Below are positions 2,724-5,162 of a stretch of 5,162 nucleotides of DNA, piece by piece. Under the pieces are notes generated by a model, which saw only the letters and a program-made list of their open reading frames with translations, did no database searches and was not told where the DNA came from. The first letter of the stretch is position 1; the number at the start of each line of letters is the position of its first letter. The translations under genes and the position numbers were made by a program. Source of the stretch: a virus (lineage: Duplodnaviria; Heunggongvirae; Uroviricota; Caudoviricetes); the IMG/VR virus record IMGVR_UViG_2541047790_000010. The stretch is one strand, 5' to 3'.

Positions 2724-3728
2724 TCAATCCGCAAACGTCAGGGTGCACTCATCAACAGCCGCGTACAGTTCAGGTTCACCGAGTGCATAACCTTCATTGC
2801 GCAGGTAGGAATGCACGTATTCACTGCTTTCATCATCAAACTCAGCACGAAACCAGCGTGTTATCGCCTGAGTGTAAATATGCAGATTATCCAGCGTCGT
2901 TACTGCCAGACGCTTACCCGGCATAAACGGGGGAATAAACGCAAAGCGGCCAGCAACAGAACTTGTAGCCATCTGTGCCGCATTCACATCAGACGGGCGG
3001 TCTGCGGCATTAAATAACTTCAGGCGTTGATGTGCTGCCAGCTCTGCCCCAACCAGTACAACCAGACGAGGATCTTCACGAAACTGCTCAGCAATAAGCT
3101 CTGTAATCAGATGGTTGGCCAGAGCATCAATATTTTTCCAGGTGCCAGTCTCTCCCAGAGTGACAGGCTCAGAGATGATTTGCTTTCCGTTCCCGTAGGC
3201 TTTCGCCAGTGCATGCCAGCCAATATTGACATCCTCGCCTTTTTTATTGATTTCCGGGTTTGTAGTATTTGCAATCGACACACCGTTGAAACCGACCCGC
3301 AGCATGTCCAGCGCATATGCCTGGGCAAAAAAGCTCTCAACCGTTTTCTCAAACTCATCCGGCACGCCGGTATGGTAAATATGAGACATATCGGAATAGC
3401 TGATCCGGGCGCAGGTATCCGTCTCTGTCAGAAAGAACTCCGTACCATTGATTGCCATTTTTTTGTGGAAACGGCCACCATCCACACGTCCGGTATACAG
3501 TTCACTGGCACCAATATTGACGGCATTACCTGACACGGCGTTAACATCACGTAGGGTAATATTTTTAATAAGCCACCCGGATTCCAGAATTGAGGTACGC
3601 AGTATATTTTCAGTAGGTTCGCTTAATGCAAAGCGTCTGTTTGATTCTTCCTGATAGTTAGTGCCAGTGACGAATTTATTATGATAACGACGTGCTGCGT
3701 CCGGCCTTTCAGTTTTGAAGGCATACAT
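2724..3728 (-). CDS. Major capsid protein homologue, P2 gpN family (334 aa)
   Basis: ATG at 3726-3728 with AAGGTGA about 8 nt upstream. Translation matches my recollection of P2 gpN in several blocks: FALSEPTENIL...ESGWL, LRVGFNGV, NIGW, IDALANHLITELIAEQFREDPRLVVLVGAELAAHQ, and TLDNLHIY near the C-terminus. Similarity is judged from memory of gpN, not computed. Confidence 0.8.
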   Translation of the reverse strand: MYAFKTERPDAARRYHNKFVTGTNYQEESNRRFALSEPTENILRTSILESGWLIKNITLRDVNAVSGNAVNIGASELYTGRVDGGRFHKKMAINGTEFFLTETDTCARISYSDMSHIYHTGVPDEFEKTVESFFAQAYALDMLRVGFNGVSIANTTNPEINKKGEDVNIGWHALAKAYGNGKQIISEPVTLGETGTWKNIDALANHLITELIAEQFREDPRLVVLVGAELAAHQRLKLFNAADRPSDVNAAQMATSSVAGRFAFIPPFMPGKRLAVTTLDNLHIYTQAITRWFRAEFDDESSEYVHSYLRNEGYALGEPELYAAVDECTLTFAD

Positions 3729-3750: not shown

Positions 3751-4611
3751 TTAAGAAAAGATTTTATTTTTGTACTCAGTAACCAGATTGTATTTCATTA
3801 CATGCTCAACATAATCCCGGTCACTTACGACTGAACGTAATACATAATTATCTGCTCGATAGTACTCCCTGTAAGCCATAGCTCTTGCCATTCCACCGTT
3901 ATTTAATACATAACGATCAGTTGGAACGCTACAACGACTAATAATTTCACTCACGGAATCAGATAAAGACTTGAGTGCATCAGTAATAAATTTAATATCA
4001 CGGACAACGTCACTGTCATTAAATACAGAAATAAAATCAGCAGGGATCTGGCCGGATTGAGGAAATATATTCAGTAAACGCTTATCGATTCCCTTCCCAA
4101 TGTAGTTTCCTTCATCGGCCAGTACTCCCGGCAAAAGCTTGATCGTGCTCAATCGACTATGTTGTTCATTCAACCGGGAAACAGCCAGATGGTAATACCG
4201 TTCAGCATCCGCTCGTTCAGCATGCCCCATTTTATTCGTTTTGGCTTCAGCAATGCTACTGACGCCGTTTTTTGAGAATGTGCTTTTCCATGCAACTTCC
4301 GCATTTGTCACTTCACGCTGCCGGAAAGATAACTCTTCCTCTTCCTGACGACACAACTGGGCATAACGGCTCAGGAGCAGGTTGATCTCATTCGCCACAG
4401 TTTCCGTATCAGGTACTGTTAACCCCGTAAGTGAATACAGCTTTTCACCTTTAGCTCGCAGCTTATTCAGTGAATATATTTCAATAATACGCACAATACA
4501 GGCCGTGTCGCTATGAGTCTCTTTAAATGATCTTACTTTGTAACTATCTAACACCGACACATGTTCGTTCTTAATTGATGCCAATTTCTTCTTAAAAACA
4601 TTGTCAACCAT
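3751..4611 (-). CDS. Hypothetical protein (286 aa), orphan, A+T-rich; function unknown
   Basis: ATG at 4609-4611 with GAGGTGG 9-10 nt upstream; 17 nt after the alpA stop and 22 nt before the capsid start, so probably co-transcribed. No recognisable catalytic motif, Walker A or transmembrane stretch. Charged, probably helical middle segment (LCRQEEEELSFRQREV...). Visibly A+T-richer than the capsid and primase genes. Confidence 0.7.
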   Translation of the reverse strand: MVDNVFKKKLASIKNEHVSVLDSYKVRSFKETHSDTACIVRIIEIYSLNKLRAKGEKLYSLTGLTVPDTETVANEINLLLSRYAQLCRQEEEELSFRQREVTNAEVAWKSTFSKNGVSSIAEAKTNKMGHAERADAERYYHLAVSRLNEQHSRLSTIKLLPGVLADEGNYIGKGIDKRLLNIFPQSGQIPADFISVFNDSDVVRDIKFITDALKSLSDSVSEIISRCSVPTDRYVLNNGGMARAMAYREYYRADNYVLRSVVSDRDYVEHVMKYNLVTEYKNKIFS

Positions 4612-4628: not shown

Positions 4629-4856
4629 TTAGGAGTTTAATTTTCTATTGAGAATATTCTTCTCTATCCATTCATTAACTTCATGCTCCACCCATGCAAC
4701 AGAACGAGAACCGATAGAAACTTGGTTCGGAAATTCATCATTCTTTATCTTTAGATAAATTGTTGACTTGGGTAAGCCAGTCAAATTAATCACTTCTGAT
4801 ATTCTCAGAAGTCTATATCTTTTTTGGGGTGCGTTTTCCCGAGGCAATAAGCTCAT
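4629..4856 (-). CDS. alpA: AlpA-family (P4 Vis-like) helix-turn-helix transcriptional regulator / excision-control protein (75 aa from ATG)
   Basis: Translation KRYRLLRISEVINLTGLPKSTIYLKIKN...SIGSRSVAWVEHEVNEWIEKN follows the AlpA pattern (RxLRLxxVxxxTGxxxSTIY...GxRSVxWxExEIxEW). The ORF-track start at 4871 is a GTG; the ATG at 4854-4856 has AAGGA 8 nt upstream and is preferred. Confidence 0.85.
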   Translation of the reverse strand: MSLLPRENAPQKRYRLLRISEVINLTGLPKSTIYLKIKNDEFPNQVSIGSRSVAWVEHEVNEWIEKNILNRKLNS

Positions 4857-4987
4857 GGCTATGTCCTTCACATTAGATATTTATACTAAGACTTAATTAG
4901 TCTCTATTGGGTGTATATATACTTGCACAGAAGAATTAATACGTAAAGACTGGCACTTTCAAACTCATTCAAAGAATTTGAATACTA

Positions 4988-5018
4988 AATAATGGTGAAT
5001 AATAGTTAATAATGGTGA
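4988..5018. repeat. Two copies of an 11-bp direct repeat AATAATGGTGA with 20-bp periodicity; candidate operator/iteron
   Basis: Exact copies at 4988-4998 and 5008-5018 in the A+T-rich region upstream of alpA. A small inverted repeat AGACT-N5-AGTCT (4889-4903) lies nearer the alpA start, overlapping a TATAAA -10-like element (minus-strand sense; plus 4880-4885). Confidence 0.5.
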
Positions 5019-5128
5019 GTATTACTGAGTGACAACCTTTGCCAATGCTTGTTAATCTCTGATAATAATGAAATTTGACGAATAATATATGTAACAATTT
5101 GTAAACTAAAGACTGCATTAGGTTTGTT

Positions 5129-5162
5129 GGGGCTGGGCTGGGCTGGGCTGGGCTGGGCTGGG
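5129..5162. repeat. Pentanucleotide tandem repeat (GGGCT)n, at least 6 units, running off the window edge
   Basis: GGGGCTGGGCTGGGCTGGGCTGGGCTGGGCTGG directly visible; an abrupt change from the preceding A+T-rich sequence. Full length unknown because the window ends inside it. Confidence 0.9.

Follow-up and report, generated by a model that had tools for sequence, protein, structure and literature searches.

The stretch of DNA analyzed here, referred to throughout as the window, comprises the 5,162 nucleotides (nt) of virus record IMGVR_UViG_2541047790_000010 and ends at its right-hand edge in a run of the pentanucleotide GGGCT. This run is a real, perfect, and hypervariable variable-number tandem repeat (VNTR) of non-coding DNA, located where the control region of the gene alpA meets the P arm of the attachment site (attP in the excised circle, attR in the integrated element) of an 11-kb P4-related satellite prophage integrated at the tRNA-Arg(CCU) gene argW. 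We favor, with somewhat more confidence than doubt, the reading that the tract is driven by slippage and serves as a variable spacer and not as a switch, at most modulating cross-talk or transcription between its two sides.

A perfect GGGCT tract that varies among strains by whole units

Tandem Repeats Finder (TRF) describes the tract at window positions 5130-5162 as a repeat of period 5 with 6.6 copies, 100% matches, and no indels. Read directly, the window closes with gttg, six GGGCT units, and GGG, so that the tract reaches the last base and is cut by the window edge. The original prediction, made from the letters of the window alone, had claimed a perfect tract of at least six units, and both approaches confirm this, with the exact start at 5130; position 5129 is an additional G ahead of the first unit. 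The 30-nt sequence (GGGCT)6 occurs once in the window and in none of 200 dinucleotide-preserving shuffles, even when three mismatches are allowed. GC content measured over 60-nt intervals is 0.67-0.75 in the tract, compared with 0.20-0.37 to its left and 0.17-0.28 to its right, in agreement with the further claim that the tract begins abruptly after A+T-rich DNA. As a feature, the tract reads as follows.

5130..5162, plus strand (the G-rich strand): (GGGCT)n microsatellite, 6.6 units in the window and 2-32 in complete genomes

The tract was followed past position 5162 in genomes that contain the window at 100% identity, where it continues and is succeeded by the attR arm and core. To sample its length, a 393-bp query made up of both flanks and 12 units was used; it matched 434 genomes, from which 59 full-length rows were taken evenly down the ranking. 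The span differed from 393 bp by an exact multiple of 5 bp in 55 of the 59, and in 53 of those 55, which have near-identical flanks, n ranges from 2 to 32 with a median of 15. The tract thus consists of short head-to-tail units within the 1-9 bp range that defines microsatellites and VNTRs, every allele read is made of perfect units, and copy number is polymorphic among strains in whole units. The following alleles were read directly, each as a perfect array.

AVS0967: 2 units
IMG/VR contig L012: 9 units
D6: 10 units
JJ1887: 12 units
Strain 2/0: 19 units
S103EC: 32 units
Isolate 4/0 (urinary tract infection): 16 units
Isolate 4/1-1 (feces): 10 units
Isolate 4/4 (feces): 32 units

The last three isolates, which from their names look like a serial Swedish set from one patient, have identical flanks despite their 16, 10, and 32 units. 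Because tract length changes in whole 5-bp units, we infer slipped-strand mispairing, and the proneness to slippage that the original prediction proposed is supported by exact 5-bp steps over n = 2-32 between identical flanks; across strains the tract is not invariant. Parker and Marinus are said to have found in 1992 that, in E. coli, loops of 5 nt escape MutHLS mismatch repair. Copy number shows no preference for frame or parity among the 53 alleles (n mod 3 = 15/20/18; 28 odd and 25 even).

That these differences are sequencing or assembly artefacts affecting a truly invariant tract is scarcely credible. Four of the 59 spans are not multiples of 5, which is most simply ascribed to long-read indel errors, and three draft contigs stop at the tract or within ~65 bp of it (Salmonella L007, accession OX345456.1; Citrobacter youngae L008; Citrobacter sp. 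NCU1 L010), so that the repeat evidently breaks short-read assemblies. Against an artefact, the other 55 differences are exact multiples of 5 with perfect units, and near-identical genomes agree: LS4 and NQ3, whose genomes are 1 bp apart in length, both have 12 units, and Esc3, Esc5, Esc7, and Esc27 have one common span. The linear 7-kb contig OX345456.1, deposited as a Salmonella "plasmid," stops ~65 bp short of the tract and is uninformative about it. In strain 98889 (H1, NZ_CP173438.1), an IS1A element with an annotated IS1 transposase lies between alpA and the tract and splits the match into two pieces.

The two strands of the tract differ in their predicted folding. In the 19-kb locus of JJ1887 (L001), the tract is the only canonical G-quadruplex (G4) motif on either strand (G3N1-7 x4, i.e., four runs of at least three G with loops of 1-7 nt), with a G4Hunter score of 1.92; the motif is lost at n < 4, as in 1 of the 53 sampled alleles. 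For scale, the whole E. coli genome has been estimated to contain only ~65-69 potential quadruplex sequences (review, PMC7015867). The G strand folds at z = -3.9 relative to shuffles, through slipped hairpins, compared with z = -0.3 for the C strand, and, when G4 energies are included, ViennaRNA predicts quadruplex formation for n >= 4. Slippage is probably aided by slipped hairpins or quadruplexes of the G-rich strand.

As the original prediction had suspected, the tract belongs to no standard enterobacterial repeat family. An Rfam search (E <= 1) returned no structured RNA over it, with matches only elsewhere in the element (C4, isrK, and c4-a1b1), and the literature searched contained no publication describing a GGGCT repeat locus or its use as a typing marker. 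Interspersed repeats of the REP/BIME and ERIC/IRU types were rejected as candidates: the tract is a simple 5-nt tandem unit, found at a median of 1 place per genome, with no Rfam family.

The non-coding setting of the tract at the alpA-att junction

Two coding or regulatory settings had been proposed for the tract, a pentapeptide-repeat coding sequence and a phase-variable switch in a promoter or coding region beyond the window, and neither is borne out. Beyond the window lie the 123 bp of the attR arm, the 20-bp core, and then host or other-prophage DNA; the DNA past the edge is therefore an attachment-site arm and core and not a gene. The tract itself is in neither a genuine reading frame nor the interval between promoter elements. 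Translation gives PSPAQ or LGWAG repeats, not repeats of the A(D/N)LXX type, with no conserved open reading frame (ORF) around them. A consensus promoter scan found no pair of hexamers flanking the tract, and alleles of 10-160 bp exclude a role as the 16-18 bp spacer between a -35 and a -10 element.

It is very improbable that the tract is an intragenic contingency locus, with changes in unit number shifting the frame of a small ORF that would cross it (minus strand, (PSPAQ)n; plus strand, (LGWAG)n). All three plus-strand frames run into a stop codon 7-17 codons beyond it. On the minus strand, translation from an ATG could pass through MDWVYLPQ(PSPAQ)n to any of three tails, and JJ1887, in which the longest tail has 52 codons, contains an 83-codon ORF on that strand, but there is no Shine-Dalgarno-like sequence ahead of this ATG, and in SC434 and C. 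youngae the longest tail meets a stop after 2 codons. A single tail frame is open in all five relatives compared (33-40 codons), but its variable sites are spread 5/6/6 over the codon positions, and its codon changes are very largely nonsynonymous, with 12 nonsynonymous and 0 synonymous ones separating JJ1887 from Citrobacter NCU1; the unbiased n mod 3 likewise speaks against selection of a frame. A GGGCT repeat does lie inside a methyltransferase-like ORF of an unrelated viral contig, and RefSeq does annotate a protein over 32-unit alleles of the tract. In the absence of a coding signature in the frames, we regard the latter as an ORF-calling artefact. The annotation (PGAP) is a 71-amino-acid (aa) "hypothetical protein," WP_206429866.1, at L003 1698-1913 (plus strand) and L154 1528-1743 (plus strand), which is nearly all translated 32-unit tract; annotations of this kind appear for long alleles only.

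The surroundings of the tract were described in L001, in which window positions equal L001 positions minus 5001, and in an attP rebuilt by joining the right end of the element to its left end, in which attP coordinates equal window positions minus 4856 up to the tract. In the reconstructed circle, alpA and int are separated by a divergent intergenic region of ~625 bp that contains the tract, at attP 274-326, directly outside the arm-type and IHF sites. The following features lie to the left of the tract.

4629..4856, minus strand: alpA, 75 aa, AlpA/Vis-type regulator/excisionase (Pfam Phage_AlpA, E = 5e-20; PHROG "excisionase and transcriptional regulator"; RefSeq)
4908..4916, no strand assigned: TGGGTGTAT, an inverted 9-mer holding the arm-type core GTGTAT, at attP 52 and 331; 100% conserved in five relatives
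4988..5018, no strand assigned: ~10-bp iterons AATAATGGTGA (TRF period 10, 3.1 copies), at attP 132 and 152 and inverted at 548
5039..5066, plus strand: sigma-70 promoter-like TTGCCA-N16-GATAAT, directed towards the tract (consensus scan)
5045 to 5018, minus strand: promoter-like TTGGCA-N16-AATACT, overlapping the rightward site back to back (consensus scan)
5090..5106, no strand assigned: TGTAAC-AATT-TGTAAAC motif, left border of the variable slot; invariant in five GGGCT-type relatives

alpA is the first gene of a leftward string, and its start is 273 bp from the tract. The inverted 9-mers bracket the tract, with TGGGTGTAT on the left and ATACACCCA directly after it, and the inverted copy of AATAATGGTGA lies upstream of int in the reconstructed attP. 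The AATAATGGTGA iterons could be candidate binding sites for AlpA/Vis or the primase. Iterons of this kind (AATAATGGTGA, or GGTGAAYAAT) number from 2 to 5 across relatives (L005, L006, L008, and L010), and the variant in PEC1011 is GGTGAACA, the reverse complement of TGTTCACC, which we take to be the P4 ori/crr iteron. The consensus scan found 5 promoter-like sites compared with 3.8 expected, and at this near-chance frequency such sites are weak evidence on their own; their hexamers are largely conserved among relatives, with a variable spacer.

To the right, the tract of L001 runs to 10190 and is followed by GGGG to 10194, with an inverted degenerate unit, ATACACCCAGTCC, directly after the tract and paired arm-type motifs, GTGTATAAC/GTGTATAGA, ~40-60 nt past it. 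Motifs of the form G(T/C)GTATA(A/G)(A/C) occur at attP 369 and 381 in the left arm, at 580 and 592 in the right arm, with inverted ones overlying the start codon of int. The core is 13 nt away from an exact match to the IHF consensus, AATCAATTTCTTA (0.09 expected by chance), and the 20-bp att core, ATTCCTGCAGGGGACACCAT, occupies L001 10314-10333. This right flank is highly conserved, and the left junction is ragged, with lineage-specific indels, as is usual at microsatellite borders.

The last 1.16 kb of the window was found in 448 of 5,426 complete E. coli genomes, once per genome and always on the chromosome; 418 of the 448 genomes are at least 99% identical, many of them of sequence type 131 (ST131), such as JJ1887 and O25b:H4. 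The same 1.16 kb had no match in a phage collection and, among plasmids, matched one truncated Salmonella contig only. RefSeq annotation with Pfam and PHROG scans gives the order argW/attL, int (reading rightwards), variable cargo, and then leftward genes for an ogr/Delta protein, a DUF927 primase, two small proteins, an Ash/Icd-like protein, a capsid homologue, a 286-aa protein, and AlpA. In D6, two direct copies of the 20-bp ATTCCTGCAGGGGACACCAT, the 3'-terminal sequence of argW, delimit an element of exactly 11,000 bp, with 123 bp between the end of the tract and attR and 159 bp between attL and the start of int. In JJ1887, the neighbor to the right of attR is the 3' end of dsdC, whose transcription is directed towards the tract and alpA; in D6 (L002/L029), it is intS of another, CPS-53-like prophage that follows attR directly, so that argW carries two integrative elements one after the other. 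As cargo between int and delta, D6 has genes of the sce7725/sce7726 families, and JJ1887 has IS66 and other transposase genes; in JJ1887, a partial match to the AfaR small RNA (sRNA) at L001 2500-2635 (minus strand), outside the window, lies near the IS66/transposase remnants (51.6 bits against a gathering score of 100, with its 3' end cut off by the stretch searched). Other features of the element within the window are as follows.

2724-3728, minus strand: P2-family major capsid homologue, 334 aa (Pfam Phage_cap_P2, E = 1e-66; PHROG major head protein, E = 2e-86)
3751-4611, minus strand: the 286-aa protein, with no Pfam or PHROG match
2304-2391 (L001 7305-7392), minus strand: C4 antisense RNA (Rfam, 81 bits)
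2472-2549 (L001 7473-7550), minus strand: isrK (Rfam, 69 bits)
2510-2562 (L001 7511-7563), minus strand: c4 a1b1 target (Rfam, 44 bits, just below the gathering score)

The last three lie within or beside the Ash/Icd-like gene and represent an RNA immunity module of the P4/P1 type. The capsid homologue and the 286-aa protein fill the place that psu and sid have in canonical P4, between the immunity region and alpA. The P4-like core set comprises int, psu, delta, sid, alpA, and epsilon, together with alpha (Moura de Sousa and Rocha, PMC8628076). Like members of that family, the element has an integrase, an ogr-like delta, an alpha primase-helicase, alpA, and P4-type C4/isrK RNAs. Unlike them, it gave no Psu or Sid match among the six proteins scanned, all within the window and not from the cargo; its att lies between int and alpA, compared with between int and alpha in the P4 circle; and all its genes except int read one way. 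Given the lack of detectable psu and sid and the different gene order, we class the element as P4-related without counting it among the canonical members. In the D6 locus, the 19-nt cohesive end of P2/P4 had no match even when 3 mismatches were allowed, and loose G-rich patterns matched only inside genes.

The variable slot in relatives and possible roles of the tract

All relatives with this alpA-att module carry a perfect tract. There are 15 units in E. coli PEC1011 and 16 in SC434, between flanks that are only 85-87% identical; the C. youngae contig ends inside its tract; and Citrobacter sp. NCU1, whose 286-aa protein is 81% identical, has at least 8 units. A second C. youngae copy, in which another module replaces alpA, has no tract. 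In SC434 (L006), the attR core is shortened to ATTCCT and runs straight into the 3' end of dsdC, with the 16 perfect units retained; with its truncated core, this satellite copy can probably no longer leave its site.

More distant satellites integrating at argW (Int 74-90% and AlpA 54-69% identical) were compared over the slot that extends from the TGTAA-N-TGTAAA motif to the paired arm sites. Recognizable versions of this motif precede the slot in all six argW lineages compared, and the slots without GGGCT are filled as follows.

L048 236-361 / L082 16433-16558: (GGTTGGCA)15, metagenomic argW satellite
L053 1035-1105 / L084 20249-20319: (GGTTGGCA)8, metagenomic argW satellite
L050, L054, and L055: unrelated unique DNA of ~36, 165, and 180 nt, respectively

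The slot thus holds 10-160 bp of GGGCT, 64-120 bp of GGTTGGCA in two lineages, or ~36-180 bp of unique DNA in three. In the octamer-bearing pair, the unit is identical between flanks at or near chance identity (left, 0.53 vs 0.53 shuffled; right, 0.61 vs 0.53), and identity between the two satellites is 90% for Int, compared with 72% for AlpA, 79% for the primase, and 53% for Delta. The GGTTGGCA and GGGCT arrays are G-rich on the same strand (GC skew, +0.6 and +0.5, respectively). GGTTGGCA has two-G runs only and a G4Hunter score of ~0.9, so that G4 formation is not a strongly shared property of both repeat types; GGTTGG is a thrombin-aptamer-type two-tetrad motif. Octamer-array satellites were sought in E. 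coli genomes without a match, long arrays being present only in the two known contigs. Other tandem arrays in the related satellites L049, L060, and L086 lie in cargo regions and not near att.

The most likely status of the tract is that of a self-perpetuating variable spacer. It would fill the slot that separates the outer P-arm edge from the alpA control region, which contains iterons, promoter-like sites, and the TGTAA-N-TGTAAA motif; slipped-strand mispairing would change it in 5-bp steps, with the 5-nt loops presumably escaping MutHLS repair; and its length and strand-asymmetric G-richness may, at most, tune transcription or communication between the side of alpA and that of att and int. 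Because the slot tolerates very different lengths and contents, the tract would, on this reading, not be a gene on/off switch and not be required for basic satellite functions. Several observations sit less easily with a passive spacer: the perfect tract persists in all relatives with the module, including two Citrobacter species and relatives whose flanks have diverged by ~13-15%; the octamer unit is identical, and identically placed, in two satellites with flanks that match no better, or little better, than chance; and both repeat types are G-rich on the same strand. By a rough estimate, a neutral 8-mer at the divergence of the right flank would have remained unchanged with a probability of only ~0.02. 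The persistence, the octamer identity, and the strand bias hint at selection or at recombination through the arrays, and the octamer identity might alternatively reflect recombination between co-resident satellites through the arrays themselves.

It is possible, though we consider it doubtful, that the tract is instead a selected, tunable cis-element of the alpA/att/int control region, the length of which sets a heritable and reversible probability of excision or integration. In a version modeled on the Neisseria meningitidis nadA promoter, each 5-bp step would alter the distance of the flanking sites and rotate them through roughly half a turn of the helix, the sites concerned being the IHF and arm sites, the AATAATGGTGA sites, and the TGGGTGTAT/ATACACCCA pair; the tract is indeed bracketed by inverted 9-mers with an arm-type core and abuts the attP arm, and in nadA a distal non-coding repeat with operators and a junction IHF site provides a precedent (PMC2791445), but n has no parity or other bias. 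In a barrier version, the non-template strand of rightward transcripts would be G-rich and liable to form a G4 or an R-loop, and leftward transcripts, from dsdC or round the circle, would carry unstructured (AGCCC)n RNA suited to Rho loading. In its favor, the tract is the only G4 motif in 19 kb and folds differently on its two strands, a promoter-like site whose hexamers are conserved in relatives points into it, and dsdC is transcribed towards it and alpA in JJ1887; however, promoter-like matches occur at chance frequency, scans upstream of the octamer arrays likewise gave chance-level matches and none upstream of one array, and the two-G runs of GGTTGGCA have weak G4 potential. The persistence of perfect arrays across diverged lineages, and of a second repeat that is G-rich on the same strand and keeps its unit amid randomized flanks, would suit either version, whereas the absence of any repeat from the slot of three of the six argW lineages and a 2-unit allele in an otherwise identical element argue against both. 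More speculative still is the proposal that argW satellites acquired the G-rich arrays of both types, (GGGCT)n and (GGTTGGCA)n, by convergence and under selection, as a "rheostat" where attP has its inner edge. In this scheme, slippage would reset array length at high frequency, and that length, through helical phasing or through a strand-asymmetric block to transcription (a G4 or R-loop in one direction, Rho loading on the C-rich RNA in the other), would set the probability of alpA and int expression and hence of excision, integration, or transfer of the satellite.

A role as a binding array for a sequence-specific protein, whether as origin iterons for the DUF927 primase-helicase, as a partition or centromere-like site, or as a filament site for AlpA/Vis, is unlikely. 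Contiguous short repeats beside A+T-rich DNA resemble the iterons of satellites and plasmids, such as those of SaPI and P4 origins, and the unit is conserved between two satellites with unrelated flanks. However, no protein co-varies cleanly with repeat type, lineages without a repeat have equally similar AlpA proteins, and a range of n from 2 to 32 with a 5-bp unit, which would place successive sites on opposite faces of the helix, would be unusual for such an array. Repeat type does not follow primase similarity, over either the whole protein or the C-terminal 200 aa, and L042 has a 99% identical primase but no GGGCT tract in the 15 kb compared, which argues against the tract as origin iterons for this primase; with no co-variation of array and primase, that candidate was rejected.

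Significance and comparison with known repeat systems

To our knowledge, long perfect short-unit repeats are unusual in E. coli. Because the tract differs between closely related ST131 isolates, it offers a ready-made, high-resolution strain marker, and it is at the same time a hazard for short-read assembly. It also marks a length-tolerant slot in the att/regulatory region of a little-studied satellite that has its own P2-type capsid gene and defence cargo, and it provides a lead into the biology of satellite att regions. If the arrays are functional, they would link hypermutable repeats, and possibly G4 or Rho biology, to the control of satellite mobilization, a link that has not been described.

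MLVA typing of E. coli makes use of multi-allelic VNTR loci. The GGGCT tract resembles these in being a multi-allelic tandem repeat that separates closely related isolates and differs from them in its location on a mobile satellite present in only ~8% of complete genomes. Classical contingency loci are penta- and tetranucleotide tracts in Neisseria and Haemophilus genes, placed in frame or between the -35 and -10 elements. The likeness to the tract lies in a perfect tandem short unit of high copy number, slippage-type changes, and units too long for mismatch repair; unlike those loci, the tract is in neither a reading frame nor a -35/-10 interval, positions in which GGGCT/AGCCC does occur in two unrelated viral contigs. 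These two belong to 17 other viral-contig stretches with at least six GGGCT units, all unrelated elements, and have the repeat in a classical gene-associated context: 26 units inside an ORF with a weak TRM5/TYW2 methyltransferase match (L025 8297-8426), and 13 units located 130 nt upstream of, and on the same strand as, a gene for a 523-aa DUF4942 protein (L019 5799-5863). Phase-variable methyltransferases (phasevarions; PMC5909438) are among the classical contingency loci. A rheostat at attP, if real, would act as a contingency locus for a phage satellite's life cycle instead of for a surface antigen.

Two further systems invite comparison through G-richness. The pilE G4 of Neisseria gonorrhoeae is likewise a G4-forming motif in non-coding DNA beside a site of programmed recombination; it occurs as one fixed motif, whose role has been demonstrated and which has an associated sRNA promoter, whereas the GGGCT tract is a variable array with a predicted G4. 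Mammalian immunoglobulin switch regions, when their transcription leaves the G-rich strand as the non-template one, adopt R-loop and G4 structures. They share with the tract the GGGCT pentamer and G-richness on one strand, an analogy of sequence chemistry only, and differ in organism, in their kilobase scale, and in the AID machinery. Their characteristic pentamers include TGGGG, GGGGT, GGGCT, and GAGCT (PMC2442634).

The nadA promoter of N. meningitidis has a distal non-coding simple sequence repeat, (TAAA)n, with operators flanking it and IHF at the junction (PMC2791445). For nadA, it has been demonstrated which gene is controlled, that NadR is the repressor, and which expression class goes with each repeat number, whereas any regulatory role of the GGGCT tract would be hypothetical; moreover, the tract's range of n (2-32) is much wider, and it has sister lineages with no repeat at all. 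Examined for a NadA-type arrangement, the satellite has the bracketing 9-mers and the IHF and arm sites, together with three repeat-free sister lineages and no parity bias in n. Both systems nevertheless place a perfect, polymorphic tract of short units in non-coding DNA, at a good distance upstream of a core promoter, flanked by repeated motifs of the protein-binding type and with an IHF site nearby.

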